DNA of 64,000 nucleotides from Bacteroidota bacterium (GTDB lineage Bacteria > Bacteroidota > Bacteroidia > UKL13-3). Positions 24,679 to 40,375 of the stretch are shown here, in pieces. Position 1 is the first letter of the stretch. Each line of letters starts with the position of its first letter. The DNA is taken from positions 78,825 to 142,824 of the forward strand of contig CANGVA010000003.1 of the NCBI GenBank assembly GCA_947457395.1, written 5' to 3'. Under the pieces are notes generated by a model. That model searched no databases, had not been told where the DNA came from, and saw nothing but the letters and a program-made list of their open reading frames with translations. The position numbers and the translations under genes were made by a program.

Positions 24679-24698
24679 GAAAAGTTAAATTGTTAAAT

Positions 24699-26426
24699 AT
24701 GAATTCACCACACACAACCAACCGCTCAACTCTAAAAACCTTTATTTCTAAAAGCGTTCAAAAAACTCTCTTAAAGTTACCTTCTGCCTGCAGATTAGGG
24801 TTGTTATTTATTTTACTTAGTTATTTAACATCTTGTAGTTGGATTTTAATCCCAAGAAAGCAAAAAGTAAACTTTCAAACCGAAAACAAAGATTCAAAAG
24901 TATTTATACGCAATGAGTTGGTTGGTAAAGGCAAATCGTTTACTGCAAAACTAGATAAATTCGGAGTCCAGCAGGTTATTATTAGAACCCCCGATTGTAA
25001 AGATGCATTTGACGTAATTGTACCTGTTAAAAGAACAGTGGCAAGACCATTATTGGTTATACTGAGTTATGGTTTCTTTGTGTATCCTGGTCTTGTGGAT
25101 ATGTATATAGAAGATGATAAGTTTTTCCCGTATAATAAATATATACCATTGAAATCAGGTAACCTGCTTGAGAAAAGAAGCAATAACCAAAAATATGTAA
25201 AGCTGGAGGCAATCAAACTTAAGATTGATGATAAGAATAAAGATATCAGATATATAGATGATGTAGAATATACCACTCATCCTAATATCATCAAGGATAT
25301 TGAAGCAAGAGAGCTTGAGTTCTTTTCAGATGAGCGGAAAAGAGAACAAAAAGAGGCTGCTAAAGCTGCTAAAAGGAAGAAAACTGCGAAAGAACAACTC
25401 GTGTCGGAATCAGACAAAAATGAAGTTCATTATGACGACACCAAATTTTCAGAAATGGTATTCAATACCTTGAAAACTACCGGTTATATTGATACAGTTA
25501 ACAAGGTTTTTCAAGACAATAACAACACCGTTTACCTTGAAGGCGTGATAAAAAAATCGCATTTGTATGAAATAGAAACAAACTTCGCTTCTTTCTATAA
25601 AACTAAACTAAATATTACCTGGTATATTTTGAATAGTTATGGAGAGAAACTTGATTCGCAAAATTTTTGGAGCTATTCAGGTAATTTCCCTGGCTTATTC
25701 CTTGCTAAGGATAAGAGCTACCAAATGTATGCAGATGCTGTTGACTTTTCTTACTTTACCTTATTAAAGAGCGAACAATTTCAAAAGTATCTTGCAGTTG
25801 ATTCCAATTATTCAATCAACGATCAGGTGCTTACTTTAAAAAAACCTACCAAAGTTGTTAAAGAGATTGGTGATGCAACAGCTGCTGCAGTTTCAATTAA
25901 GCGCAGTGACAAAGGACATGGATCTGGCTTTGCCATCACGCATGATGGTTATATTTTAACAAACTATCATGTTATTGCTGGAGATTATGCCGGCAGACCA
26001 GATGATATTAAGGTTGTGCTGTCTGATGGCGAAGAAATTCCTGTTAATGTGGTCAGGTATAACAAGGCAAGAGATTTAGCCTTACTTAAAGTTGAGAAAA
26101 ATTTTGATGTTGTTTTTGAATTGAAAGGCGAGAAAAGCTATAAAAAGCTATCAGAGATTTATGCAGTGGGAACTCCTAAATCACTTGAGTTGGGTCAATC
26201 TGTTAGTTTAGGAATTCTGTCTAATGAGCGCAAAGTAAACAGTGGAAGCATGCTGCAGGTAAATATGAGTATTAACCCCGGTAATAGCGGTGGTGCTCTA
26301 TTTGATAAGGCGGGTGCTCTGCATGGGGTAGTTACTTCTAAATTGGTGGGTTTTGCTACAGAAGGTGTGGGATTTGCTATACCCTCATATCTTATACCTA
26401 GCTATCTAAATTTAAAAGTTGACTAG
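24699..26426 (+). CDS. Trypsin-like (S1) serine peptidase with a ~380-aa N-terminal domain of unknown function; probable lipoprotein
   Basis: C-terminal catalytic triad context: TNYHVI (His), RDLALLKVE (Asp), NPGNSGGALFD (Ser). N-terminal lipobox-like LLSYLTSCSW. The central KR-rich stretch ERKREQKEAAKAAKRKKTAKEQ is predicted coiled-coil/basic. Confidence 0.7.
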   Translation: MNSPHTTNRSTLKTFISKSVQKTLLKLPSACRLGLLFILLSYLTSCSWILIPRKQKVNFQTENKDSKVFIRNELVGKGKSFTAKLDKFGVQQVIIRTPDCKDAFDVIVPVKRTVARPLLVILSYGFFVYPGLVDMYIEDDKFFPYNKYIPLKSGNLLEKRSNNQKYVKLEAIKLKIDDKNKDIRYIDDVEYTTHPNIIKDIEARELEFFSDERKREQKEAAKAAKRKKTAKEQLVSESDKNEVHYDDTKFSEMVFNTLKTTGYIDTVNKVFQDNNNTVYLEGVIKKSHLYEIETNFASFYKTKLNITWYILNSYGEKLDSQNFWSYSGNFPGLFLAKDKSYQMYADAVDFSYFTLLKSEQFQKYLAVDSNYSINDQVLTLKKPTKVVKEIGDATAAAVSIKRSDKGHGSGFAITHDGYILTNYHVIAGDYAGRPDDIKVVLSDGEEIPVNVVRYNKARDLALLKVEKNFDVVFELKGEKSYKKLSEIYAVGTPKSLELGQSVSLGILSNERKVNSGSMLQVNMSINPGNSGGALFDKAGALHGVVTSKLVGFATEGVGFAIPSYLIPSYLNLKVD

Positions 26427-26508: not shown

Positions 26509-27450
26509 TTATGATGTTTGACCACCTAAATGATGCAGCATATCTTTGGTCATATTATCTAAATCAAATTCAGGTTTCCAACCCCAGTGATTGCGTGCCT
26601 CGGTATCGTCAATACTGGCAGGCCAGCTATCTGCAATGGCTTGTCTGAAATCCGGCTTATAGCTGATGGTAAACTCAGGAATGTGCTTGCGAATAGACGC
26701 TGCAATCTCTTCCGGATCAAAACTCACGCCTGCTATATTATAGCTGCTGCGTATTTTTACTTTTTCTGCAGGTGCTTCCATGAGTTCAATCGTGGCGCGC
26801 AAAGCGTCCGGCATATACATCATAGGCAAAACAGTTCCTGCTTTCAAAAAGCATTCATAGGTTTTGCTTTTTAAAGCTTCATGATAAATATGCACGGCAT
26901 AATCCGTGGTGCCTCCGCCCGGAGCAGATTTGTATCCAATTAATCCGGGATAGCGCAAACTCCTCACATCTACACCATATTTCTGATGATAATACTCGCA
27001 AAAACGCTCGCCTGCTTGTTTGCTTATGCCGTAAATGGTATTAGGCTCCATTACGGTGTATTGAGGCGTACTAACCCTTGGTGTAGTGGGGCCAAATACA
27101 GCAATGGAACTTGGCCAGTATAATTTCTTTATCAGTCCTTCCTTGGCAGCATCCAAACCGTTAAACAATCCCTGCATGTTCAGGTCCCAGCCCAGCTTTG
27201 GATTTTTTTCAGCTGTGGCCGAAAGCAGTGCGGCCAGCAGGTAAACCTGTGTAATGCCATGCTTTTTTATAATGGCATACATGTTTTCTTTGTCCATTAC
27301 ATCCAGCAATTCATAAGGACCTTCAGCTTGTGCAGGTGCTTTTATATCAGAAGTAACAACATTGTTGGTACCAAAAATTTTTCTGAGTTCTGTACTCAAT
27401 TCGGTACCAATTTGTCCGTTGGCACCAATAATTAAAATCTTTTCAGCCAT
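26509..27450 (-). CDS. tdh: L-threonine 3-dehydrogenase, SDR/UDP-glucose-4-epimerase-like type (NAD-dependent epimerase/dehydratase family)
   Basis: ILIIGANGQIGTEL; SSIAVFGP; YGISK (YxxxK); YPGLIGYKS.PGGGTTDYAV; KYECF. Collinear with the archaeal/bacterial short-chain TDHs as I recall them. Confidence 0.75.
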   Translation of the reverse strand: MAEKILIIGANGQIGTELSTELRKIFGTNNVVTSDIKAPAQAEGPYELLDVMDKENMYAIIKKHGITQVYLLAALLSATAEKNPKLGWDLNMQGLFNGLDAAKEGLIKKLYWPSSIAVFGPTTPRVSTPQYTVMEPNTIYGISKQAGERFCEYYHQKYGVDVRSLRYPGLIGYKSAPGGGTTDYAVHIYHEALKSKTYECFLKAGTVLPMMYMPDALRATIELMEAPAEKVKIRSSYNIAGVSFDPEEIAASIRKHIPEFTISYKPDFRQAIADSWPASIDDTEARNHWGWKPEFDLDNMTKDMLHHLGGQTS

Positions 27451-27580
27451 TGATTGTGCTTAAGCGGGTGTAAAAATAGAACTATTTTGGATTTAGGCCA
27501 TTAAATTATCTGCACATTTATGCCAACCTGAGCCTGATTTTATAACTACGTGTAAATGCCTTAATATTGAGGTGTTAAAA

Positions 27581-28885
27581 ATGCCTTACCTTATTCAAAG
27601 TTTTGATAAAACCACTACAACCATTGGTAGCTTAGTAGAACCTGAGCGCTACCGTGATTTATGGAACCTGCCTTTACATAAGCCAATTATTGCAAGAGGT
27701 GCCGGCCTGTCATATTGCGCTGCTTCTGCAGGCAATCAATGCGTGTCAGTAGATATGCGAAACTTTAACCGCATACTGTCTTTTGATGAAATTAACGGAA
27801 TAATAACCGTAGAGGCGGGTATACCTGCGGGGGAGTTAAATAATTTTCTGATTGGGAAAAACTGGGTTTTGCCAGTGCTTCCCGGTTATCCTGCCATTAC
27901 CATTGGGGGTTGTATTGGGTTTAATGTGCACGGCAAATCACAATACAAAGTTGGTACGTTTATCAATTGGGTAAAATCTATCACCTTATTTCATCCCGAT
28001 ACAGGTTTGCAAACATGCACACCTGATACTGAATTATTTCAATTAACGGTTGGTGGCATGGGCCTTACGGGTATTATTATTTCGGCTACCATTGCATTAA
28101 AAAAAATAGACGGGAACCTCATGTCAATTCAGGCAATGAAGGTGCCGGAGATACAAACCGCTGTGGAGGTAATGGCAACAAAAGCTGAAGAGTATGATTA
28201 TATTTATGCATGGAATAATTTTAACCTAAGGGGTAAGCATTTTGGAAAGGGCATTGTATACCTTGAAAATCATTTACCTGACAGAAAGGAATTAAACCCT
28301 AAGCCATACATCAATAAACTAAATAGATTTAAAAAAATTCCTGTGTTGTATAATGGCCTTACGGTAAAAACCATGAATCGGGTTTATGAATTGATGGATG
28401 CCTTGCAACCCAGGCAACGCGTAATTGATTTGGTGCAGGCTTCATTCCCAATTTATAACAAGGAATTATACTATTATTTTTTTGGTAAAAAAGGGTTTAG
28501 GGAGTACCAAGTGATATTTGATTTAGATAAATGGCAGGCTGCTGTTGCTGAAATTCAGAAGATCATAGCTCAAATGAATATGCCAATTGCATTAGGATCA
28601 TTAAAAATATTTAAAGGGGAGCCTCACAATATCAGTTTCTCAGGCAGCGGACTCTGTGTTACCATTGATGTGCCTAATAACAAAAAATCGATTTCTTTTT
28701 TTGAGGCATTAGATAAAATTACTTTAAAATATGGAGGCATCATTAACTTAAGTAAAGACAGCAGAGCTGATGCCAATTTGGTTAAACATTGTTTCCCGCA
28801 TTATGAACAGTTTAAGCAGGGAATCCATCGGCATGACCCCAACCAGTATTTTGGAAGTGAAATAAGAACCAGATTAGATTTATAA
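27581..28885 (+). CDS. FAD-dependent oxidase homologous to DprE1 (decaprenylphosphoryl-beta-D-ribose 2'-oxidase; FAD_binding_4)
   Basis: RGAGLSY..., LPVLPGYPAITIGGCIGFNVHGKSQ, LFQLTVGGMGLTGIIISATIALKKI and C-terminal INLSKDSRADANLVKHCFP...F align motif-for-motif with M. tuberculosis DprE1 ([69 protein letters not shown]), recalled from memory. The ORF-track start at 27572 is GTG and the first ATG is at 27581. Confidence 0.8.
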   Translation: MPYLIQSFDKTTTTIGSLVEPERYRDLWNLPLHKPIIARGAGLSYCAASAGNQCVSVDMRNFNRILSFDEINGIITVEAGIPAGELNNFLIGKNWVLPVLPGYPAITIGGCIGFNVHGKSQYKVGTFINWVKSITLFHPDTGLQTCTPDTELFQLTVGGMGLTGIIISATIALKKIDGNLMSIQAMKVPEIQTAVEVMATKAEEYDYIYAWNNFNLRGKHFGKGIVYLENHLPDRKELNPKPYINKLNRFKKIPVLYNGLTVKTMNRVYELMDALQPRQRVIDLVQASFPIYNKELYYYFFGKKGFREYQVIFDLDKWQAAVAEIQKIIAQMNMPIALGSLKIFKGEPHNISFSGSGLCVTIDVPNNKKSISFFEALDKITLKYGGIINLSKDSRADANLVKHCFPHYEQFKQGIHRHDPNQYFGSEIRTRLDL

Positions 28886-29628
28886 TGAAACAGGCAGCAA
28901 TTATCATTGGAGCAAGCTCAGGCTTAGGACGCGCATTGGCAGAAGCAATTGCCCGCACAGGCACGGATGTAATAATGAGTGCCCGCGCAGAACAGGAACT
29001 ACAAATTTTGGCCACCCATTTGCGCATCCGTTACCAAATACAGGCAGAGGTTATTCCGTTAGATCTAGCTACCCTTACTACAGCAACTGCTAAAAACTAT
29101 GTTGATCAATGTTTTGAAAAAATGCCACACTGTTCTCAGGTGTATATTACTGCAGGCATTATAGATGAGCTGGATAAAGGAACCGAGGCTGTTGATTATT
29201 TGCCTAAACTTATGCAGGTAAATTGCATGGGCATAAGCTATGTGATGAATGCGTGTTGCCAATGGTTGCAAAATCGGTCAGCCAATATTACCCTTATCTC
29301 TTCCATAGCGGCCATCAGGCCCCGTGGCTCCAATATTGCCTACAGCGCTTCTAAAATTGCACTGGAGTATATGGCATTGGGTTTGAGGCATCATTTTGCG
29401 CAAAGCCCATTGCGCATTCAGGTATACAGGGCTGGTTATATGGAAACCGCTTTAAGCACAGGTAAGAAATTATTGTTTCCTGTTGCAAAGCCTGAGCGTG
29501 TTGCCCGTGTTTTGATTAAAAACAGACATAAAGATACAGGCTTGATCTATGTGCCGGTATTCTGGCTACCTTTATCGTGGGTGCTGCAATATTTGCCTTG
29601 GTTTATATTTAAAAAACTGAAATTTTAA
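28885..29628 (+). CDS. Short-chain dehydrogenase/reductase homologous to DprE2 (decaprenylphosphoryl-2-keto-ribose reductase)
   Basis: Rossmann IIGASSGLGRALA and YSASKIAL (YxxxK). The C-terminal tail LIYVPVFWLPLSWVLQYLPWFIFKKLKF closely parallels the DprE2 tail ...[28 protein letters not shown]. Start overlaps the upstream stop (TAATG at 28883-28887). Confidence 0.75.
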   Translation: MKQAAIIIGASSGLGRALAEAIARTGTDVIMSARAEQELQILATHLRIRYQIQAEVIPLDLATLTTATAKNYVDQCFEKMPHCSQVYITAGIIDELDKGTEAVDYLPKLMQVNCMGISYVMNACCQWLQNRSANITLISSIAAIRPRGSNIAYSASKIALEYMALGLRHHFAQSPLRIQVYRAGYMETALSTGKKLLFPVAKPERVARVLIKNRHKDTGLIYVPVFWLPLSWVLQYLPWFIFKKLKF

Positions 29629-29644
29629 TTACTTTTCCCCCTTC

Positions 29645-30373
29645 ATGAGCAAGTCCAATATCAGTATATTTTTTCCGGTTTATAATGATGAGCGCACCGT
29701 GCAGGCTGTTACAGAAAAAGCACTGGCTTTTGGTAAAGAGTGTGCCGGTTTGTTTGAAGTCATTATTATAAACGACTGCAGTCCGGATAATTCAGGAAAA
29801 ATTGCAGATACATTAGCCCTCACTTATCCAAATGTGCGCGTCATACATCATCCAAAAAATATGGGCTATGGCGCAGCAGTAAAATCTGGTTTGGGTGCAG
29901 CCCAATATGAATATGTCTGTTTTACCGATGGTGATGATGAGTATGATATGGAAGAATTTAAGAAACTCATCAAGCTGAAAGACTATTACGACCTTATAAT
30001 TACCTTTCGCTACAAAAAGATTTATTCCAATAAAAGGATTTTTATTTCTTATATCTACAATCGTTTGCTGCGATGGATATTCAGAACCAACTTTCGTGAT
30101 ATTAGTACTGGTTTACGCCTGGTGAGGAAAGATATATTAGCTGATATAAACCTGATAACAGATAGTCCGTTTATTGGCGCAGAGCTTACTATTAAAACTA
30201 TGCTAAAGGGCTACAGAGTGGGCGAAGTAGGCATACAAACATTTCCGCGTAAATTTGGTCAGGGCGCATCTACCAGCTTTAAAAATATTATGCGCACCAT
30301 TAAAGATATGCGTAAGGTATATCGCGAAATATTTTCAGACCATTATGATTTGCCTAAGAACAGGCAACGATAA
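29645..30373 (+). CDS. GT2-family polyprenyl-phosphate glycosyltransferase (DPM1/DPG-synthase-like; soluble, no TM anchor)
   Basis: IFFPVYNDE, IIINDCSPDNS, TDGDDEY (DxD), MGYGAAVKSG. No hydrophobic C-terminal segments. Confidence 0.8.
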   Translation: MSKSNISIFFPVYNDERTVQAVTEKALAFGKECAGLFEVIIINDCSPDNSGKIADTLALTYPNVRVIHHPKNMGYGAAVKSGLGAAQYEYVCFTDGDDEYDMEEFKKLIKLKDYYDLIITFRYKKIYSNKRIFISYIYNRLLRWIFRTNFRDISTGLRLVRKDILADINLITDSPFIGAELTIKTMLKGYRVGEVGIQTFPRKFGQGASTSFKNIMRTIKDMRKVYREIFSDHYDLPKNRQR

Positions 30374-30384
30374 ATTAATATATT

Positions 30385-31029
30385 ATGAATTACGACCGTA
30401 TTTACGAATATCGCTTTAAGGATGTTGACCGTGAGAAAAAACTCATGACATGGAAAGAGATTGCTACTTTCATATATAATAAGCTGGATAAACCAAAACG
30501 TATGCTTGATCCTGCTGCAGGGGATTGTGAGTTTATTAATCAGATTGCCTCGGAAGAACGCTGGGCGGTTGATATGAGTGAAATAACACCTAAAATGGCG
30601 CAGCAAGGTATTAAGGTAATCACAGGTAATAATTTAGAAGTAGACTTACCCGAAAATTATTTTGATGGGGTTTTTATCTCCAATTTTTTAGAGCACTTGC
30701 ACAGCCAGGAGCAGGTTGCATTTTTTCTGGAGCGCATGTATAAAGCCATCAAACCCGGAGGGCGTATTGCCATCATGGGACCCAACTTTAAATATACCTA
30801 CAAATATTATTTTGATTTTGCTGATCATACTGTGCTGCTTTCTGAAGGCGGAGTTGCCGAGCATTTGTATGGTGCAGGTTTTAATCCCATTGAAGTGCAC
30901 CCAAAATTTTTGCCATTATCATTTAAAAGCAGGTTACCTGTAAATGCATTTTTGGTGCGTACCTATTTAAATATGCCCATGGTTTGGCCTATTATGGGTA
31001 AGCAATTTTTACTCATTGGTCAGAAGTAA
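30385..31029 (+). CDS. Class I SAM-dependent methyltransferase
   Basis: Motif I region LDPAAGDCEF; post-I/II DGVFISNFLEHL, KPGGRIAIMGP. Confidence 0.7.
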   Translation: MNYDRIYEYRFKDVDREKKLMTWKEIATFIYNKLDKPKRMLDPAAGDCEFINQIASEERWAVDMSEITPKMAQQGIKVITGNNLEVDLPENYFDGVFISNFLEHLHSQEQVAFFLERMYKAIKPGGRIAIMGPNFKYTYKYYFDFADHTVLLSEGGVAEHLYGAGFNPIEVHPKFLPLSFKSRLPVNAFLVRTYLNMPMVWPIMGKQFLLIGQK

Positions 31030-31069
31030 AGTTGCCGTAGTAATGCATTTTTTTTAATACTAACGCAAC

Positions 31070-31681
31070 ATGAATATAGCAATTATCGGAACAGGAAATG
31101 TTGGCGGTGCATTGGCTACTGCCTGGGCAGCCAAAGGTCATCATATTTTTCTCGGTGTGCAGGATCTCAATCAGTTTAAGGGTAGGGATTTGCTCAAGAA
31201 TCAACAAACACAGGCATGCTCCATTGCAGAAGCAGTGGCTAAGGCAGATGTGATATTAATGGCCATACCGCCTCAGGCCATTTTTGGTGTGTTAGAATTA
31301 ATGGGTGATGTAACAGGTAAAACCATAATTGATGCCACCAATGCCGTGAGGCTGGCCCCCGATCCCTATAAAACCGTATATCATTGCCTGGCCGATAAAA
31401 CCAAAGCAGATGTGGTAAAATGTTTTAACAGTACCGGTTTTGAAAACATGCTTAATCCGATTTATAATGGGCAAGGCATTGATATGTTTATGGCAGGCGA
31501 TAGTGATAAGGCTAAAGCTATAGCAAGTATTTTGGCAAGCGATGCAGGTTTTGGATCATGTATGGATTTTGGCAAGGCTGATAAGGTTGAACTCTTGGAA
31601 AAATTTGCCCTATCATGGATAAATCTGGCTATTATGCAGGGCCATGGTCGCAACATGGCGTTTAAAGTGGTGCGCAGGTAA
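31070..31681 (+). CDS. NADP-dependent oxidoreductase, F420-dependent-NADP-reductase (FNO/Npd)-like Rossmann protein
   Basis: MNIAIIGTGNVGGALA dinucleotide-binding start; ~200 aa; resembles the FNO/pyrroline-5-carboxylate-reductase-like NADP_oxidored family. Confidence 0.6.
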   Translation: MNIAIIGTGNVGGALATAWAAKGHHIFLGVQDLNQFKGRDLLKNQQTQACSIAEAVAKADVILMAIPPQAIFGVLELMGDVTGKTIIDATNAVRLAPDPYKTVYHCLADKTKADVVKCFNSTGFENMLNPIYNGQGIDMFMAGDSDKAKAIASILASDAGFGSCMDFGKADKVELLEKFALSWINLAIMQGHGRNMAFKVVRR

Positions 31682-31722
31682 GCAACTGCCATCTTGTTTC
31701 AAGTAGTTTTAAAAGAACAGAA

Positions 31723-33333
31723 TTATTGTGCAACCTTAAATCCATCATTGATATCAGAGGTGCGCAGCATTATTTTATCTGCAATGTAATACGTGCAAGG
31801 AAATTGATCCCAGCACAGGTTGTTTGATTGTACCACAAAAACAGGAAACTGATTGATTTGACTTTGTGTGAGTGTATGCTGAGGATAGCGTAGCGGCTTT
31901 ATAAGAGTAATTTTATCTTGGTTATGCCAAATAAGCCAGCATAGCATCAGCGCCACTACTCCCATATATGCTTTACGTGCCATGTTAAATGCAGGTAATG
32001 TATATTGAGACAAGGCTATGCCCATCATCACCACCATATATCCGTACATAAAACGCATATGTGGTCCGCTGTTAAATAACATGAACCAGCCTGCAAGTGC
32101 TGCCAGTGTTTGTATCGGAAAAGATTTTTGTTTAATGGAGATAATCAGCAGGCTCAGCAAAGATGCAACAAACGCTAAAACCATTCCCTTATTAAACAAG
32201 TCGAGTTGATTAAACCAAACCGGCACCCATTGCTCATATGAGAGCTGTGCTGTTTCATAAATATTGGAATAAGGTATGCGTCCCCATCCTTTTAAAACTA
32301 TTTTATCATATTCAAAGTACGAAGCAGGCACTTTCCAGTCTACCTGAAATAGATCTATCTGATTAAATGGATAAAGGAGGAAACCGCCACGTACCACATT
32401 ACCTGCAAGCCATGGCAGCAGCCAGATGCAGCCAAAAACAGCAATTATGGAAACATACAACCAAACCTGTTTGCTGCTGCGCAAGTACCAGAGTAATATT
32501 ATAATTAGAAACACCAGCAGCAAGGCCGTTGCCTTGATTGTGATGCCCCAAAATATCAGCAATGAAATAATGAGGCTGTAAAAGCCTTTTGATGCGTTGC
32601 TTTGTCTGCTCTCCAGGAATAAGTCAAAGCAAAGAAAAATAATACCGGTGATAACAATATCAGGTGTAACGCTGCCAATAAAAGCAGTTTTTACAGTAAG
32701 CAGCAGGAATAAAATAACAGGCACCCTGAACAAACGTTGTTTGGTTTCAAACACATTACGACTAAAATAAATCATGAGCAACACGTACCAAACACCGTTA
32801 AGTACATACACAGATTGCACGTCCATGTTGCGTAAACCGAAAAATGCCTGTAGATGAAACCACCAGTTATTATTTACAAGTGGACGGTTAAAATTACCAA
32901 TGCCAGGTAGCAGTTTGTAATACTCAGACCATTTAATGGCCTGCAGGTGGTAGTCCGCAATATCGCCCGACCCCGGCTTTATGGCTACGCTGATAATTGC
33001 TGTAAGCAGCAGCAGCAAATTAAACCATATGCTTTTGCGAATGCGATACATCAAATCGGGCAACACACTTATCATTTGCTTTTGGCAGGCTGTAAGTGAC
33101 GCGGTGATAAAAATCCAGACTACAACATGACAGCGCCAGTCAATTGGAATGATAAAATGAAGCAGTGAAACGATGCATGAAATAACAGCAAATCCAATAA
33201 TAACCACCAGTGGTGAGCGCAAGTGCCAGGGCTCGTGCTCCCCTGTAAGTTTCATGATAAACAGAATGGTTGTTACTCCTGCAGCATAGCCAATTATAGA
33301 GGCATAGAGCATGAGTAGCAAAACTTCCAGCAT
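31723..33333 (-). CDS. Polytopic integral membrane protein (>=12 predicted TM helices), possible GT-C-type glycosyltransferase or polymerase-like protein
   Basis: 536 aa, almost entirely hydrophobic helices with one sizeable loop; no family motif recognised. Immediately downstream (4 nt) of the YfhO gene. Confidence 0.5.
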   Translation of the reverse strand: MLEVLLLMLYASIIGYAAGVTTILFIMKLTGEHEPWHLRSPLVVIIGFAVISCIVSLLHFIIPIDWRCHVVVWIFITASLTACQKQMISVLPDLMYRIRKSIWFNLLLLLTAIISVAIKPGSGDIADYHLQAIKWSEYYKLLPGIGNFNRPLVNNNWWFHLQAFFGLRNMDVQSVYVLNGVWYVLLMIYFSRNVFETKQRLFRVPVILFLLLTVKTAFIGSVTPDIVITGIIFLCFDLFLESRQSNASKGFYSLIISLLIFWGITIKATALLLVFLIIILLWYLRSSKQVWLYVSIIAVFGCIWLLPWLAGNVVRGGFLLYPFNQIDLFQVDWKVPASYFEYDKIVLKGWGRIPYSNIYETAQLSYEQWVPVWFNQLDLFNKGMVLAFVASLLSLLIISIKQKSFPIQTLAALAGWFMLFNSGPHMRFMYGYMVVMMGIALSQYTLPAFNMARKAYMGVVALMLCWLIWHNQDKITLIKPLRYPQHTLTQSQINQFPVFVVQSNNLCWDQFPCTYYIADKIMLRTSDINDGFKVAQ

Positions 33334-33338
33334 GGTTA

Positions 33339-35783
33339 TTAGCTCTTTTGTTCGGTTTTTCTTCTCCTGAAAAAGGTAAATCCACCCGCAACTACAATCC
33401 CACCATATAAAATAATGGAAGCAAACATTGAAACACGTTCACCCGTTTCTACAACCTCAGGCTCAAACACAAATTCAATGCGATGTTTACCTGCAGGCAC
33501 TTTCATGCCGCGTAATACATAGTTACAGCGAAGATGTTCTGCTGCATTGCCATCAATTGAGGCCTTCCATCCTTTATCGTAGTAGATTTCAGAAAATACT
33601 GCCAGGTTATCCGAACTGCTGTTCGATTCATAAACCAGTTTGTTGGGCGCATAACTTAGCAGTTTAATAGATGATGTAGAATCTGCCGTTGGATTGAATC
33701 CTTTAAGCATTTCAGCAAAACGTTTATCAACCAATGCAGTAGTTTTTGTATTGATTGTTTTAAGTGAGTCTATTTCTGCATCCGCATTATCAACCATCAT
33801 CAGGTTGCTAATAAACCACGCGTTGCCATTTGCTTCCGGATTGGCTTGAGCAAACAAATTATTGGCACTATCACCTACTATAAAGTATTTAACATTGAGC
33901 ATATTAAAAGCCTGCATATTCCCGCGTGATAAGTGAAACTCTATTAATTCCTGATATCTCCGCATTTTAGCGCCATGATATCCGCCAATGGATTTATGCC
34001 AATAGGAGGTGAGGGCATCCTGATCCAGGCGTTGCGTAGTATTGTATACACGGTAATGAATATCTTTATCCTGCAAAATCATTTCATCGGCTTGTGATTT
34101 TGGAAAGGAAGCTTCCAGATTTTTCTTCTTGGTTTCAAAATCTGAATCGTTTAGGTAACGTTTGTCAACGCCCCACAAGTCAATAACAATAAGACCTAAC
34201 AAAACACCCACAAATAATTGCTGCTTCACTTTTCCGTTCAGATAAAACCATATAAGGGTGAATGCAGCACCTATAAACAGTAATGACCTAAGTGCATCCG
34301 CTTTTAGTAAGGCTTCACGGTCCTTAACGATCGATTCTCTAAGCCATTCAGGCAGGCGGTCGTCAACCGGTGAAATGAAGTTAAGAAAAAGATCAGGCAT
34401 AAATGAAAAAACTGCGCATAGCCCCCCAACAATATAAAAGCTGTACAGTAAGGGTTTTTTCAAATCGGCCGGCTTTATTTTTCCTGAAAGCAAATCGCGC
34501 AAGGCAAGCAGGGCAAGCAGCGGAAATGTTGTTTGGGTAATGCACAGAATAAAAGTTACCGAGCGGAATTTGTTATACAAAGGAAAGTTATAGAAGAACA
34601 AATCCGTTAGTGTCATAAAATTTTTGCCCATGGAAAGCATGATGGCCAATACAGAAATGGCCAGTATCCACCATTTTTCAGGCCCTTTGATAACAAATAA
34701 GCCTAGCACAAACAGAAAACAAATGATGGCGCCATAGTATATGGGGCCGGCTGTAAATGGCTGGTCACCCCAGTAAACAGGCATACCCTGAATGATTTGC
34801 TTTGCATTAGGAACCCCGTTTTGCTTTAAGATTTTATAGGTTTCGGATGAGGTGCTGAGTTCTGCCGAACTGGAGCCGCCATAAAAATTAGGGATGAGCA
34901 GGGTAAATGGTTCTGCAACACCATTGCTCCATTGCAGGGCATAATCTTTATCCAATCCGGAGGAGGCAATAGCGGCATTACCTTCGCCTGTAGCCGTTTT
35001 GGTAAGTTCTGATTTGCCACGTATACTATACTTGCCATATTCTTCTGTTGGTAGCAGATTGTTGGCGCCTGTTGCCACACCAACGGCTGCGGCAACAGCC
35101 AGAAATACACCGCAAATAAGTAAGTGTGCGATCTTTTTGTCTTTGGCTGCAATCACAATCTCGGCTATCATCCACACGCCAATCAGAATCATTAGGTAAT
35201 AGGTTATTTGCAAGTGGCCTGCAGCCAGCTGTAGCGATAAAGCAATACCTGTGAGCAAGGCCCCGATAAGCCTGTTTTTGCGTAAAGTATAGTTGATACC
35301 TGCAAGCACCAGAGGCATAAAGGCAATGGCATTGCCTTTGCCTACGTGCCCTGCATCTATATTGATGAGGTTAAAAGAGGAAAACATAAATGCCAGACTT
35401 CCTGCAATGGCCAGCCAGGGCGAGACCTCGAAGGTTAGCAATAAGATATAAAAGCAAATAAACAACAGAAACATCGTGTCTACCGGGTTAGGTAAAACCC
35501 GGCTAATAAAATCACTTACCGTTGATGTGAAGTTGTTTTTATAAGATGGCCCGATGAGATAGGTGGGCATGCCGCTAAACACAGAATTGGTCCAAAAAGT
35601 GCGCTCTCCGCTTGCCTTTTGATATTGTGCAATTTCATTGTAGGTAGCTTGCCATTGCTGCACGTCATGTTGTTTTAGTGCTTTCCCTGAAAGTAACGGA
35701 TTAAAATAAATGATAATGGCAGTAAGGGCAATGATAATGGCAGCCAGATGAGGAAACCATTTTTTCTGCAAAAGTGAATTCAT
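33339..35783 (-). CDS. YfhO-family membrane protein (GT-C fold; polyprenyl-phosphate-sugar-dependent periplasmic glycosyltransferase family)
   Basis: N-terminus MNSLLQKKWFPHLAAIIIALTAIIIYFNPLLSGKALKQHDVQQWQATYNEIAQYQKASGERTFWTNSVFSGMPTYLIG matches the conserved start of Bacteroidota YfhO-family proteins (...QHDI.Q..G...EI..YR..TGEE.LW.NSMFGGMP.YL) as I recall them. ~800 aa, multi-TM N-terminal half with a large C-terminal soluble domain. Confidence 0.7.
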   Translation of the reverse strand: MNSLLQKKWFPHLAAIIIALTAIIIYFNPLLSGKALKQHDVQQWQATYNEIAQYQKASGERTFWTNSVFSGMPTYLIGPSYKNNFTSTVSDFISRVLPNPVDTMFLLFICFYILLLTFEVSPWLAIAGSLAFMFSSFNLINIDAGHVGKGNAIAFMPLVLAGINYTLRKNRLIGALLTGIALSLQLAAGHLQITYYLMILIGVWMIAEIVIAAKDKKIAHLLICGVFLAVAAAVGVATGANNLLPTEEYGKYSIRGKSELTKTATGEGNAAIASSGLDKDYALQWSNGVAEPFTLLIPNFYGGSSSAELSTSSETYKILKQNGVPNAKQIIQGMPVYWGDQPFTAGPIYYGAIICFLFVLGLFVIKGPEKWWILAISVLAIMLSMGKNFMTLTDLFFYNFPLYNKFRSVTFILCITQTTFPLLALLALRDLLSGKIKPADLKKPLLYSFYIVGGLCAVFSFMPDLFLNFISPVDDRLPEWLRESIVKDREALLKADALRSLLFIGAAFTLIWFYLNGKVKQQLFVGVLLGLIVIDLWGVDKRYLNDSDFETKKKNLEASFPKSQADEMILQDKDIHYRVYNTTQRLDQDALTSYWHKSIGGYHGAKMRRYQELIEFHLSRGNMQAFNMLNVKYFIVGDSANNLFAQANPEANGNAWFISNLMMVDNADAEIDSLKTINTKTTALVDKRFAEMLKGFNPTADSTSSIKLLSYAPNKLVYESNSSSDNLAVFSEIYYDKGWKASIDGNAAEHLRCNYVLRGMKVPAGKHRIEFVFEPEVVETGERVSMFASIILYGGIVVAGGFTFFRRRKTEQKS

Positions 35784-36023
35784 GTGTTTTTGTTTAAATT
35801 GGGTTAAACACCCCTATTTAGCTGAAATAGCGGGTTTTCTGTTGCCGAATATATGTTTTGTCTGTTAACCCGCAAAATATGATAAAAATCAATCATAAAA
35901 TTAATGTTTGTATGAATGTCAAAATAGGGTAAAATGGATGTAAACAAAACATACGGGCCCATGGAATTAACTTTATTTGCACCCACTAAAATTAACCCGA
36001 TTCATTATATCCAATCTAAGTCA

Positions 36024-37316
36024 ATGAAAAAACTATTACTTCTTTTAACAGCCGTCTTGTTCATCAGCCAATTACATGCCCAAAATGTCGATTCAGTTTC
36101 GATGGGAGGCGGAACAACTGCTTATCCTTTGGATGTGTATTATAATATTACCACCGGATCCAAGGATACAGCAAGAAATAACAACTGGCATATTGCGTTC
36201 TCCGTGCGTAATGCACAGCCACCAATGAATGTATTACTTGCTGCTACCGTGCGCATCAATATGGCTCGTGGGGTTACGGTATACAAATCAAACCAAGGTC
36301 CTGATTCCTGGTCCAGTTTTGATACGACTAACTGGAGAAACTGGAATGTGGTTAGAGATAGCGACACATCATGGGATGTTGGAGCCTTAAATCAGGGAAG
36401 AACCAATGGGTTTGATTTCGGCTGGGGAGACTACAATATGAATACGCACCATATTGATGGAAAAGTGATCTACCTTTTCGCAATTAGAAATGGTAGCAAT
36501 ACCGTATTTAAGAAACTCATGATTAACCAGCTTACCCGCGATACGGCTTGGAACTTTACTTTTGCTAATCTAAACAATACAGATAGCAACAATGTGCGTT
36601 TTAACAAGGCTGCTTATACCGGTAAAATGTTTGCGTATTATAATTTATTTACTAAAACTTTATTTGATCGAGAGCCATTAAGAGCCAATTGGGACTTATT
36701 GTTTACCCGCTATCATGCTAGGGTAAATTACCTAGGCTCCGATACTTTTTATAATGTAACAGGTGTACTAATCAATCCTACAAATGTGATGGCTGCCCGT
36801 GTTTCAGGTCTACAGCGTGATAGCGTTAATCGTAGCAAAGTTACAGCATACATTTCTATCATTAATACCATTGGTTGGGATTGGAAAGTTTCTCCTATGG
36901 GTCCGCCAACACCATCATGGCCTATTGTTGATACATTGGTGTTTTTTGTAAAAAAGGGCAATCTTATTTATAAATTGTTATTTGACAGATTTGATGCAAA
37001 TCCTAATATGATTGTTTTCAACAAATCATCTATAGATGTTACTTCGGTAAGTAAGGTAAGCAATCCTGTTGCAAGTGTATTGGCGTATCCCAATCCTGCC
37101 AAGACGGATGTAACCATCAAGGTTATAACAGAGGCCTATAATGCCCGTCTTTCAGTTATTGATATAACCGGGAAAACTGTTTACCAAACATCCATGGAAG
37201 TTGCAGACGATGGTTTTCTCTCACAAGTTAAGACCGATCAAATAAGTAAAGGTATTTACTTTTATCATGTAGAAACCCCGATAGGAATGGTAACCGGCAA
37301 ATTTATTGTGGAGTAA
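36024..37316 (+). CDS. Secreted HmuY-like (putative heme-binding) family protein with T9SS C-terminal sorting domain
   Basis: Signal peptide MKKLLLLLTAVLFISQLHAQ (the upstream ORF-track start lies beyond it). NNNWHIAFS and ANWDLLFTRY motifs parallel the downstream lipoprotein and resemble the HmuY WDIAF-type motif. C-terminus LAYPNPAKTDVTIKV...GIYFYHV...KFIVE. Confidence 0.55.
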   Translation: MKKLLLLLTAVLFISQLHAQNVDSVSMGGGTTAYPLDVYYNITTGSKDTARNNNWHIAFSVRNAQPPMNVLLAATVRINMARGVTVYKSNQGPDSWSSFDTTNWRNWNVVRDSDTSWDVGALNQGRTNGFDFGWGDYNMNTHHIDGKVIYLFAIRNGSNTVFKKLMINQLTRDTAWNFTFANLNNTDSNNVRFNKAAYTGKMFAYYNLFTKTLFDREPLRANWDLLFTRYHARVNYLGSDTFYNVTGVLINPTNVMAARVSGLQRDSVNRSKVTAYISIINTIGWDWKVSPMGPPTPSWPIVDTLVFFVKKGNLIYKLLFDRFDANPNMIVFNKSSIDVTSVSKVSNPVASVLAYPNPAKTDVTIKVITEAYNARLSVIDITGKTVYQTSMEVADDGFLSQVKTDQISKGIYFYHVETPIGMVTGKFIVE

Positions 37317-37364
37317 TCCTACTTGGAAAATATTTTTTCATATGGTTTAAAAACAACACTCACC

Positions 37365-39362
37365 ATGTTTTGCATGGTGTTTGTTGTTTTTGTGCCCTCT
37401 ATGGCACAGCAAGCGGACACCGCAAAAAGTAAGCAATTAGATGATGTGGTGATAACGGGGCAGTATGGCGAAAATTCCCTTTCGCAATCGGTTTACAGGG
37501 TAAAGGTAATTGGGCAAAAAAGAATTGAGCAGCAAGGTGCAGTTAACCTGCGTGATTTGTTAAACAATGAACTGAATATGCGTATAAACAACGACCCCGC
37601 ACTGGGTAGTGGTTTAAGCATTCAGGGCATCAATGGGCAAAACATAAAAATTATGATTGATGGTGTGCCCATTATTGGTCGTGAAGGAAATTTTATCGAT
37701 CTCAATCAGCTTAATCTAAATAATATTGAACGAATAGAAGTAGTTGAAGGGCCCATGAGTGTGAGTTTTGGAACCGATGCACTGGGCGGTGTTATTAATC
37801 TTATTACAAAGAAATCATACAAGCATCAGGATCAACTAGGAGCCAAAATATACTACGAAAATATTGGGCAGTATAACCTGAATTTATTTACAAGTATCTA
37901 TTTGAACAGAGAATGGCGTTTGGAGGTAAACGGATCAAGAAACTTTTTTGAAGGCTTTGCTCAAAATGAGGATTCACGCGTAAAACTATGGAAGCCACGC
38001 ACACAATATTTTGGAGATTTAAGTATATCTAAAAAATATTCTAACTCATCGCTCCGTTTAACCGCTAGTATTTTGGATGAGAAGGTTACCAACAGAGATT
38101 CCGGAACCATTACACCTTATAGCGCATACGGAATAGATCAGTATTATTACACCAGAAGGGCATCAACTGCGGTATTTTATGAGCGAAAACTTTTTAGCAA
38201 CCATTCACTACATGTAGTGGCCGCCTACAACCATTACAGGCGCATTGTAAATACTATTAGAAAAGATCTTGTTACACTGGAGGAATCGCTGATACCTGAA
38301 GCTCACTTGCAGGATACAGGTTACTTTAGTAATATAATGAGTAGAGGAACATTCTCCAGAAATAAGGATAAGGCTAAATATAATTATCAGTTTGGTTATG
38401 AAGCAACGCATGATCAGTTTAACGGTAGCCGCATTGCTAATGGTAGTCAATCTATTACAGATATCAGTGGTTTTGCCAGTATGGAACTTAAGTTCTTTCA
38501 GCGGCTGCTGGTTAGGCCCGGAATACGTCTAACCTATAACAGTAAGTATCAGGCCCCGCTTATACCTTCGATAAATATTAAATGGGATATTCGCTCGGAC
38601 CTAAGCCTTCGTGCTTCCTTCGGAAGAGGATTCAGATCACCTACGTTAAAGGAATTGTATTTAAGCTTTACAGATCCTGCACACAATATTAAGGGTAACC
38701 CAGATTTAAAAGCTGAAACGCAAAATAATTATCAGGTAAGTCTAACACACCAGCATAGAATGCAGGACCAAATGCTTAAAATGGATGTCGCATTTTTTTA
38801 CAATGAAATCTTTAACAAAATAGATTTAGTTTTATTAAACAGCACCAATGTGGAGGCACGTTATTCATCCATCAGTGATTTTAGAAATGTCGGTACTAAT
38901 GTTACAGCTGAATATGTGGCACCAGATTATGCAGTGAGTTTGGGCTATGCACTCATAGGTATCAATAATACTTTTACCAATCTATTGGAGTCTGACAAGT
39001 ATTTTACAACCCAGGAGTATCGTTGTAATGCGCGTTATCTGATTCGAAAAATCAAAACGCAGATTTCATTGTTTTATAAGTATAATTCCCGCATGCAGCT
39101 ATTTCAATATAATATTAACGAAGGGCAGGTTAGAACCGGTTTTATTCAAGGATTTGCTTTGTTTGATTTAACAGCAGGCAGAAGTTTTTTTAAACAAAAA
39201 CTGGCTATTCAAACTGGCATAAAAAATATATTGGATGTGCTCAATGTTCAGGCCAGTTTAGTTACTGGTCCGCATGCACCGGCTGGAAACAACGCTGCAG
39301 TAGCAATGGGTAGAACTTACTTTTGTGCAGTTCAATATCAATTAAGTATAGATAAGCGATGA
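37365..39362 (+). CDS. TonB-dependent outer-membrane receptor (HmuR-like)
   Basis: Signal peptide, plug-domain motif IEVVEGPMSVSFGTDALGGVINLITK, and a C-terminal beta-barrel. The ORF-track start at 37323 is TTG and an in-frame ATG is at 37365. Confidence 0.85.
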   Translation: MFCMVFVVFVPSMAQQADTAKSKQLDDVVITGQYGENSLSQSVYRVKVIGQKRIEQQGAVNLRDLLNNELNMRINNDPALGSGLSIQGINGQNIKIMIDGVPIIGREGNFIDLNQLNLNNIERIEVVEGPMSVSFGTDALGGVINLITKKSYKHQDQLGAKIYYENIGQYNLNLFTSIYLNREWRLEVNGSRNFFEGFAQNEDSRVKLWKPRTQYFGDLSISKKYSNSSLRLTASILDEKVTNRDSGTITPYSAYGIDQYYYTRRASTAVFYERKLFSNHSLHVVAAYNHYRRIVNTIRKDLVTLEESLIPEAHLQDTGYFSNIMSRGTFSRNKDKAKYNYQFGYEATHDQFNGSRIANGSQSITDISGFASMELKFFQRLLVRPGIRLTYNSKYQAPLIPSINIKWDIRSDLSLRASFGRGFRSPTLKELYLSFTDPAHNIKGNPDLKAETQNNYQVSLTHQHRMQDQMLKMDVAFFYNEIFNKIDLVLLNSTNVEARYSSISDFRNVGTNVTAEYVAPDYAVSLGYALIGINNTFTNLLESDKYFTTQEYRCNARYLIRKIKTQISLFYKYNSRMQLFQYNINEGQVRTGFIQGFALFDLTAGRSFFKQKLAIQTGIKNILDVLNVQASLVTGPHAPAGNNAAVAMGRTYFCAVQYQLSIDKR

Positions 39363-40375
39363 TTAAAGTTAGATATACCGCATATATGTTGACAATGGCT
39401 ATTTTCTTTTCATCATGTGAGAAGGAGGAAGTGCCCATTAAATTACCACCTAAAGATCATAATGTTGGTATGATGAGCGTTGATTTAGGCACAGAATACG
39501 ATAAGCAGGTTTATATTAATCTTGACTCAGGAATAGTTCAATCAGTAGATAATAATTTATGGGATCTAAGTTTTGATGCAGCACCGGAAGGTTTTGCTAT
39601 TTATATAAATGGAGGCAAGAATGTGTTGGTAGCAAATACCGGTAGCACAGATTTTTCTGATATCAGAATCACTTCTGAGTTAAATTGGCGCTGGGATGAG
39701 TCTTCAGGCAATCCGGATTCACTTGCGTTGAGCAATTGGTGTAATCTGCATAATCGCAGATCATATGACAGTGTTTATGTTATCGATAGGGGAATGGGAT
39801 CAAGCAATGCCAATAATTATTTTAAGTTTAAGATAATTGCTGTGACACCGCAGAAGTATGTTATTTCAGTTGCAGATATGAAGGGCAGATTTATTAAAGA
39901 AACAAATGTTTATAAGTCTCCTGATAAGATGCTGGTATATTTTTCATTCGATAACGGGGGTACATATCATAATTTTGAGCCCTCTATTCACCAATGGCAT
40001 TTTAAGTTTTTACGTTACCGGTGGGTTTATTATGAATTTACCCCACCGCTGCTGTATCAGGTTACAGGTGTTCATTTAAACAAACGAATGTTTGATGTAG
40101 CGGTAGATAGTACACTCCAGTTCTACGATATTAAGTTCGACCACTCCTTGAGTCCTACACTTTGTTATTCAAATGACAGGGATCAAATCGGGTTTGAATG
40201 GAAGTATCCTGATTTTACACCAAATGGTGTGCGCTATCGAACCAGAAGTTATATTAATTACTTTTTAAGACACCAGCACATGCATGCAACCGTTTATAAA
40301 CTTCGTTTTCTCGATTTTTATGACGATAAAGGAAATAAGGGCTCGCCACGGTTTGAATTCCAGCTACTGCATTAA
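39359..40375 (+). CDS. HmuY-like family lipoprotein (paralog of 36024..37316)
   Basis: Lipobox MAIFFSSCEKEE. NNLWDLSFDA and HQWHFKFLRY parallel the NNNWHIAFS and ANWDLLFTRY motifs of the upstream T9SS protein. Start overlaps the receptor stop (ATGA at 39359-39362). Confidence 0.5.
   Translation: MIKVRYTAYMLTMAIFFSSCEKEEVPIKLPPKDHNVGMMSVDLGTEYDKQVYINLDSGIVQSVDNNLWDLSFDAAPEGFAIYINGGKNVLVANTGSTDFSDIRITSELNWRWDESSGNPDSLALSNWCNLHNRRSYDSVYVIDRGMGSSNANNYFKFKIIAVTPQKYVISVADMKGRFIKETNVYKSPDKMLVYFSFDNGGTYHNFEPSIHQWHFKFLRYRWVYYEFTPPLLYQVTGVHLNKRMFDVAVDSTLQFYDIKFDHSLSPTLCYSNDRDQIGFEWKYPDFTPNGVRYRTRSYINYFLRHQHMHATVYKLRFLDFYDDKGNKGSPRFEFQLLH

Follow-up and report, generated by a model that had tools for sequence, protein, structure and literature searches.

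A YfhO-family GT-C protein encoded in tandem with a GT-C-fold protein of the LIC_10190 family, convergent with a candidate lipid-linked sugar donor cassette, in a Bacteroidota genome

In the genome of a Bacteroidota bacterium (GTDB lineage Bacteria; Bacteroidota; Bacteroidia; UKL13-3; GenBank assembly GCA_947457395.1), the gene for a YfhO-family protein is followed after a few nucleotides by one for a large polytopic membrane protein, and both converge on genes of apparent donor-sugar synthesis. What does the second membrane protein do, and with which of its neighbours does it work? We addressed these questions in a 64,000-nt stretch of contig CANGVA010000003.1 (positions 78,825 to 142,824 of the forward strand; the window hereafter), on which an earlier note had left the partner as a flippase, a polymerase or a second glycosyltransferase of the GT-C superfamily. 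Our reading, to which we assign a probability of about 0.6, is that two unrelated GT-C glycosyltransferases are transcribed together, and that the second, which we call LIC, is the periplasmic transferase that uses the donor of the convergent cassette. The features at the centre of this reading are the following.

33339..35783, minus strand: YfhO-family GT-C glycosyltransferase, 814 aa (Pfam PF09586 and structural model)
33334..33338, minus strand: 5-nt spacer, TAACC, from the YfhO stop codon to the LIC start codon (read directly from the sequence)
31723..33333, minus strand: LIC_10190-family membrane protein (LIC), 536 aa, GT-C fold (NF047510 / PF26626)
31682..31722, no strand: convergent intergenic region of 41 nt, from the end of the donor cassette to the end of LIC (open reading frame map)

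YfhO is the upstream and LIC the downstream gene on the minus strand, and both are convergent with a plus-strand block at 27572-31681. The tight spacing and this convergence had been described before and were borne out here. Because the spacer is only 5 nt long, it implies co-transcription of YfhO and LIC. An intrinsic terminator scan found no terminator-like site above chance in the spacer and called no terminator-like hairpin in the 41-nt convergent region; counts from the sigma-70 promoter and intrinsic terminator scans equalled those of shuffled controls, and these scans do not model Bacteroidota promoters.

LIC had been thought to belong to no recognisable family. This was wrong, as the protein matches the NCBIfam model NF047510, 'LIC_10190 family membrane protein', over positions 3-424 of 424 (E 3e-60; 204 bits against a cut-off of 100), and PF26626.1 is precomputed on all 66 of its homologues. 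A local Pfam-A scan of the 536-aa protein gave no family match; the local library seems to predate the PF26626 model, which probably accounts for the original statement. A LIC profile retrieved 7734 clusters at 50% identity, of which 4066 had E<=1e-30 and nearly all were full length, so a chance open reading frame (ORF) can be dismissed. The family is found in Bacteroidota, Cyanobacteria, Chloroflexota, Acidobacteriota and Leptospira, the last being the source of its name. The description of the partner as uncharacterised held good: a literature search for 'LIC_10190' found no paper containing the family name.

Sequence comparison places LIC near no solved structure. The single sequence had no PDB match at E<=10, and a riboflavin transporter, matched by a 45-sequence profile at E 0.19, was dismissed as a chance hit. 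LIC and YfhO are not paralogues that sequence can detect (hhalign, profile against profile, Prob 0.2%), and the match of LIC to PMT_2-like GT-C proteins from two other loci (L083 and L084, considered below) is too weak to serve as evidence (Prob 6.5%). A single metagenome-assembled genome (MAG) may have two LIC_10190 paralogues, divergent in sequence and set in different surroundings (L015 with L066, and L056 with L060), at ∼36-38% and ∼25-27% identity to the window LIC.

Structure was more informative. An AlphaFold2 (AF2) model built from 45 sequences was confident (pLDDT 91.7, pTM 0.93), and structure comparison shows it to have the GT-C fold, with ArnT a top match and with no transporter, Wzy, WaaL or SEDS protein among its structural matches. 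The fold evidence thus selects the second GT-C from the three roles proposed earlier. Three features would suit a flippase, a Wzy-type polymerase or a WaaL-type ligase acting on a lipid-linked sugar in place of a glycosyltransferase: the polytopic build of LIC, the lack of a dedicated flippase gene in its vicinity, and roughly three N-terminal helices beyond the canonical GT-C core. As LIC matches MOP-MATE flippases, Wzy polymerases and WaaL ligases in neither sequence nor fold, we rejected each of these and regard any such role as highly improbable.

A topology assembled manually from the helices of the AF2 model, hydropathy and charge predicts ∼14 transmembrane (TM) helices with both termini outside. 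The invariant residues of LIC are D124, Y128, H129, W135, G144, G317, W333, W373, P424 and R427, and the first three lie in a GDIADYH motif within a loop (119-171) that is predicted to be periplasmic and has a mean conservation of 0.77. Every other highly conserved stretch likewise falls in a predicted periplasmic loop (216-224, K267, 317-378 and 423-427) or in a small C-terminal domain, also predicted to be periplasmic, which has two conserved cysteines (C507 and C513). Mean conservation ranges from 0.58 to 0.82 in predicted periplasmic loops versus 0.23 to 0.35 in cytoplasmic loops. In the modelled topology this pattern agrees with a periplasmic active site, where the putative catalytic residues would lie. 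A BLAST search of a small database gave a weak match of LIC to a PMT_2-like GT-C (E 2.7e-4) with an offset of ∼85 residues. This offset would pair the LIC sequence GDIADY with GDTSTY after TM1 of the PMT_2-like protein, and helices 1-3 of LIC would then be an N-terminal add-on.

The upstream gene proved to be what the earlier note had taken it for, a YfhO-family GT-C. Its whole-protein PF09586 score is 57 bits against a gathering threshold of 28.5, and its predicted model has the GT-C fold, with a polytopic N-terminal domain and a C-terminal extracytoplasmic domain. The best PF09586 stretch covers only residues 704-781, 78 residues in the C-terminal part. PF09586.17 belongs to the precomputed annotation of each of the 120 homologues listed and is flagged as weak in the locus annotations. 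The ORF is no product of chance, with at least 7987 homologues, the top 120 of which are full length and 59-100% identical. Within the protein, a periplasmic β-rich domain (∼575-775) and a C-terminal TM helix follow the polytopic domain, and D40, directly after TM1, is invariant in 25 homologues.

Characterised YfhO proteins pass sugars from undecaprenyl-phosphate sugars to teichoic acids, polymers that are not known from Bacteroidota. A July 2026 preprint (10.64898/2026.07.27.740950) describes YfhO as conserved across Bacteroidota and predicted to be essential, and proposes, on in-silico arguments, that it is the missing O-oligosaccharyltransferase (O-OTase) of phylum-wide protein O-glycosylation. 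With a prediction as the sole addition, the role of YfhO in this phylum is still, as noted earlier, essentially unexplored. The proposal is not secure, because Porphyromonas gingivalis has no YfhO (10.64898/2026.07.27.740950) and PMC8729774, presented as a characterisation of the O-glycoproteome of this species, indicates that it O-glycosylates.

If LIC is a glycosyltransferase, where does its donor come from? That it would use a polyprenyl-phosphate-linked sugar is suggested by context, in that the convergent block contains a glycosyltransferase of family 2 (GT2) of the synthase type. This block comprises five genes.

27572..28885, plus strand: FAD-dependent oxidase, DprE1-like, 437 aa (NF053785, DprE1 alignment)
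28885..29628, plus strand: short-chain dehydrogenase (SDR), DprE2-like, 247 aa (PF00106)
29645..30373, plus strand: soluble GT2, polyprenyl-phosphate-sugar synthase type (DPM1 / ArnC / PpgS-like), 242 aa (PF00535, E 5e-28)
30385..31029, plus strand: class I S-adenosylmethionine-dependent methyltransferase, 214 aa (PF08241)
31070..31681, plus strand: NADP oxidoreductase (F420_oxidored / NpdG-like Rossmann protein), 203 aa (PF03807, E 4e-16)

The oxidase aligns over its full length to Mycobacterium smegmatis DprE1 (4aut; E 4e-35) and scores 231 bits with NF053785, below the equivalog cut-off of 500. The K of the 'KDSR' motif is conserved, and a Thr stands at the position aligned to the Cys targeted by benzothiazinones (alignment read by eye); no signal peptide was seen by eye at its N-terminus. 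The SDR scores 77.6 bits with NF053786, below the cut-off of 250. The GT2 has NCBIfam matches to Dol-P-hexose transferase, ArnC, AglJ and PpgS and near full-length PDB alignments to ArnC (residues 5-218) and Dol-P-Man synthase (5-213), and inspection of its translation by eye showed no TM segment. The NADP oxidoreductase, present in the window and in the related locus L002, is dispensable for the module, since L001 lacks it.

To see how LIC is placed in other genomes, we collected 80 genomic loci encoding LIC homologues and clustered their ORFs; in 74 of them the upstream sequence could be evaluated. YfhO lies directly upstream of LIC in 21 of the 74, all from Bacteroidota and most with the same flanking synteny, and in every one of the 21 the spacer is 0-9 nt. 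These loci belong to three LIC sublineages. The pairing seen in the window is therefore recurrent but not a general rule: in one sister-clade genome, YfhO (61% identical) sits ∼33 kb from LIC on the same contig without a partner. No transporter family matched LIC, and its co-localisation with YfhO is partial, so that of the two outcomes that would have told against the earlier note, only the second was seen, and in part.

A neighbour-joining tree of the LIC proteins resolves three context types. In the first, a clade of 20 loci with LIC 25-30% identical to that of the window, YfhO is followed by LIC and then by a conserved epimerase-family gene. In the second, a clade of ∼25 loci (34-43% identical), there is no YfhO within 10 kb and LIC is convergent with a GT2 gene, with genes for two SDR epimerase/dehydratases of nucleotide sugars and, usually, with a copy of the window methyltransferase (67-72% identical). 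The third consists of the window, L001, L002 and L005, which nest in the second clade, yet have YfhO upstream, and which carry the DprE1-like/SDR pair where that clade has two SDRs. In the clade around the window LIC, a convergent GT2 lies within two genes in 19 loci and the same methyltransferase is present in 11. Members of the GT2 family found in the second clade also occur close to LIC in two other MAGs, one of Pelobacteraceae (position -1) and one of Bryobacterales (position -4). For the LIC subclade of the window, then, the convergent cassette of GT2, often with methyltransferase, is the more consistent partner.

The genes of these loci differ in how fast they diverge. Across clades, YfhO is 60-65% identical, versus 25-43% for LIC (25-30% in the YfhO-adjacent clade); between L001 and the window, identities are 87% for YfhO, 95% for the methyltransferase (95-98% in L001 and L002), 92% for the GT2 and 77% for LIC. 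YfhO, the epimerase-family flank and the methyltransferase are thus far better conserved than LIC. Because LIC diverges more and its subtype follows the cassette, it behaves, judging from sequence comparison, like the variable, specificity-determining gene and YfhO like a housekeeping one. YfhO is best read as a separate, phylum-wide housekeeping GT-C and not as an obligate partner of LIC, whose functional tie to the donor cassette is the stronger one. A pathway shared by YfhO and LIC is nonetheless plausible, because the tight spacing is kept in three LIC sublineages.

This last point bears on a second explanation, that the adjacency to YfhO is a relic of synteny and that LIC and the cassette form an ArnT/ArnC-like system acting, with no dependence on YfhO, on lipid A, the lipopolysaccharide core or some other lipid or polysaccharide. 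The 0-9 nt spacing has persisted despite divergence of LIC to 25-30% identity, one of the three sublineages with YfhO is nested in a clade without it, and neutral synteny would not be expected to preserve a distance typical of translational coupling. These data argue against a relic, which we consider unlikely.

The sister-clade loci hold another polytopic protein of interest. It has 540-560 aa and no Pfam hit, is encoded with the SDR genes on one side and the conserved epimerase-family gene on the other (L048:12616-14292; also L011, L015, L020, L021, L022, L028, L034 and L069), and could be a missing flippase or another transferase. Compared with the LIC profile, its 558-aa version gave an insignificant hhalign match (Prob 6.7%).

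Does the donor module occur apart from LIC and YfhO? We inspected six loci with more distant homologues of the DprE1-like oxidase (40-53% identity), from Bacteroidota and a MAG of the candidate phyla radiation (Daviesbacteria), and the order DprE1-like oxidase, SDR, GT2 is kept in all six.

L083:8261-13237: trio, with methyltransferase; adjoining 471-aa protein, 53-55% identical to that of L084
L084:8273-13225: trio, with methyltransferase; adjoining PMT/PMT_2-type GT-C
L085:5648-10383: trio; adjoining uncharacterised 638-aa membrane protein, which may be a GT-C
L086:4149-14261: trio, with methyltransferase; adjoining PMT/PMT_2-type GT-C
L087:6175-12077: trio; adjoining 404-aa and 437-aa proteins of no family, which may include a GT-C
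L088:8001-10809: trio; no membrane protein beside it

In the three loci compared (L083-L085), the GT2 is 67-69% identical to that of the window. Known or candidate GT-C-type membrane proteins thus stand beside the trio in 5 of the 6 loci, and no YfhO (PF09586) gene occurs within 8-9 kb in any of them. Oxidase homologues, as distinct from gene contexts, were also named from Nitrospiraceae and Acidimicrobiales MAGs. From these comparisons the trio appears to be a portable donor module, often located beside GT-C-type proteins of different families. In the window, its most economical cognate is the convergent LIC.

These loci also help in judging a third explanation, in which YfhO and not LIC consumes the lipid-linked sugar of the cassette, while LIC uses a donor made elsewhere. 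Characterised YfhO proteins act with GT2 polyprenyl-phosphate-sugar synthases (YfhO, GtlB and PgfM with CsbB, GtlA and PgfS in Firmicutes), YfhO sits in the same convergent locus, and LIC proteins of the YfhO-adjacent clade, having no GT2 nearby, can evidently use distant donors. Yet YfhO is 60-87% identical in genomes without the cassette and stands alone in L081 and L082; the trio occurs without YfhO in the six loci above, five of which offer PMT/PMT_2-type or uncharacterised membrane proteins instead; and it is the LIC subtype, not the YfhO sequence, that co-varies with the GT2/methyltransferase cassette. We therefore hold it improbable that YfhO is the consumer.

If LIC is the consumer, the pathway might run as follows. 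On the cytoplasmic side of the membrane, the soluble GT2 would charge undecaprenyl phosphate with a sugar taken from a nucleotide sugar. The DprE1-like oxidase and DprE2-like SDR would then invert one hydroxyl of the lipid-linked sugar via a keto intermediate, at C-2 by analogy with DprE1/E2, and the methyltransferase would probably O-methylate the sugar. A flippase would carry the donor across the membrane, and LIC would pass the sugar to a periplasmic acceptor by means of the conserved loop (D124, Y128, H129) and R427. The tight coupling of the two genes suggests that YfhO and LIC may share one envelope glycoconjugate as their target, to which LIC would add a decoration that varies between lineages. 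A more specific version can be put forward, though we think it a long shot: LIC_10190/PF26626 would be a new, very large GT-C family, which in this lineage works in tandem with YfhO as the predicted O-OTase, so that once YfhO has attached a general O-glycan, LIC adds a methylated sugar whose stereochemistry was set on the lipid carrier by the DprE1/E2-like pair acting on a GT2-made undecaprenyl-phosphate sugar. Literature searches found no donor route in which such a pair acts on a GT2-made undecaprenyl-phosphate sugar and no description of a GT2-initiated, DprE-type module for lipid-linked epimerisation; the combination of DprE1, DprE2 and Bacteroidetes retrieved zero papers.

Several observations weigh against LIC as the cognate transferase of the cassette. 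In this genome, YfhO could equally use the donor. No GT2 adjoins any of the 20 LIC genes in the YfhO-adjacent clade, so that linkage to a donor is not universal, and the sister-clade GT2 is only ∼20% identical to that of the window, which makes the association one with a GT2 plus methyltransferase and not with this exact module. The GDIADYH loop comes after helix 4, whereas canonical GT-C proteins have their Asp loop after TM1, and the equation of D124 with the Asp of the first external loop (EL1) draws on the weak hhalign (Prob 6.5%) and BLAST matches to PMT_2-like proteins given above. Among the ORFs of 120 aa or more scanned from 17.6 to 45.2 kb, no gene for a flippase (GtrA, MATE, Wzx) or a PPPRS/UbiA protein was found, and no small ORF lies between genes, which leaves the three-component set incomplete. 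The literature search found no experiment on a LIC_10190-family protein.

Known systems provide parallels. In three-component systems (GtrA/GtrB/GtrC; CsbB/GtcA/YfhO; PPPRS/MATE/GT136 of Citrobacter, PMC11127046), as in the window, a synthase is encoded beside a GT-C with a periplasmic active site. The window differs in that it encodes no flippase alongside the synthase and GT-C, and in that it holds two GT-C genes, with YfhO co-transcribed. Its second GT-C comes from LIC_10190/PF26626, has no detectable sequence similarity to solved structures and has no significant profile match to YfhO or PMT_2-like alignments. In the sections consulted of Kelly et al. 2024 (PMC11127046), DprE1/E2 homologues serve in the arabinofuranose variants as auxiliary epimerases that diversify a lipid-linked donor, much as we propose here; they are documented there only downstream of a synthase dependent on phosphoribosyl pyrophosphate (PRPP), and the authors state that they are aware of no further epimerases in systems for side-chain glycosylation. 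In the window, the DprE1/E2-like enzymes are joined to a GT2 instead of a PRPP-dependent, UbiA-type PPPRS, a pairing not seen among the systems described in those sections.

The decaprenyl-P-arabinose pathway of mycobacteria (DprE1/DprE2 with Emb/Aft) differs in several respects. The region scanned has no UbiA protein or PPPRS of the Rv3806c type, and no phosphatase gene was found among its ORFs (17.6-45.2 kb). With no PPPRS and with both scores sub-equivalog (231 against 500 bits, 78 against 250), we rejected the canonical D-arabinofuranose pathway. With a GT2 at the start of donor synthesis, ribofuranose is an unlikely sugar.

The ArnC/ArnD/ArnT system resembles the proposed pathway in three respects: the GT2 aligns to ArnC, the top matches of the LIC model include ArnT, and in both a lipid-linked sugar is modified before flipping. 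The window has no ArnA, ArnB, ArnD, ArnE or ArnF homologues, and has redox epimerases in place of the deformylase.

The Pgf locus of Streptococcus mutans, which we take to be the nearest precedent for two GT-C proteins in one locus, likewise combines a GT2 polyprenyl-phosphate-sugar synthase, an epimerase and two polytopic GT-Cs. Both of these (PgfM1, PgfM2) are YfhO-like, whereas the second GT-C of the window is unrelated, and the epimerase PgfE acts on a nucleotide sugar, not a lipid-linked one. NCBIfam matches of the window YfhO and GT2 to PgfM1, PgfM2 and PgfS are weak (24-42 bits), far below the equivalog cut-offs of 500-1500.

The variable locus is bounded by conserved genes, the right-hand one being the epimerase-family gene already mentioned.

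26509..27450, minus strand: NAD-dependent epimerase/dehydratase-family gene, 313 aa (PF01370)

Copies of it, 74-96% identical, flank LIC loci of each of the three context types in Bacteroidota; what part it plays in the pathway is uncertain. Beyond it, the window encodes an HtrA-like serine protease (24690-26426, plus strand) with an N-terminal extension of ∼380 aa that matches no family. A homologue 39-41% identical lies downstream of the epimerase-family gene in the YfhO-adjacent clade (L037-L054), preceded by a protein of 510-536 aa that is present in 1-3 tandem copies and matches no Pfam family; in the single copy looked at, the N-terminus is hydrophobic and may be a signal or anchor. On the other side, a block divergent from YfhO (35934-40375, plus strand) encodes a protein sorted by the type IX secretion system (Por_Secre_tail), a 679-aa ORF, labelled 'TonB' on length alone, and a 338-aa protein. 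These three genes are kept upstream of YfhO in L001, L002 and the YfhO-adjacent clade (35-86% identity).

A large family, listed in databases simply as 'membrane protein', gains a fold and a plausible function. If LIC is the transferase we take it to be, LIC_10190 would found a new CAZy glycosyltransferase family, as GT136 did in 2024. The portable trio suggests that epimerisation on the lipid carrier extends beyond PRPP-derived pentofuranoses. Finally, a variable GT-C encoded directly behind YfhO, the current O-OTase candidate, provides a two-gene target for glycoproteomics.

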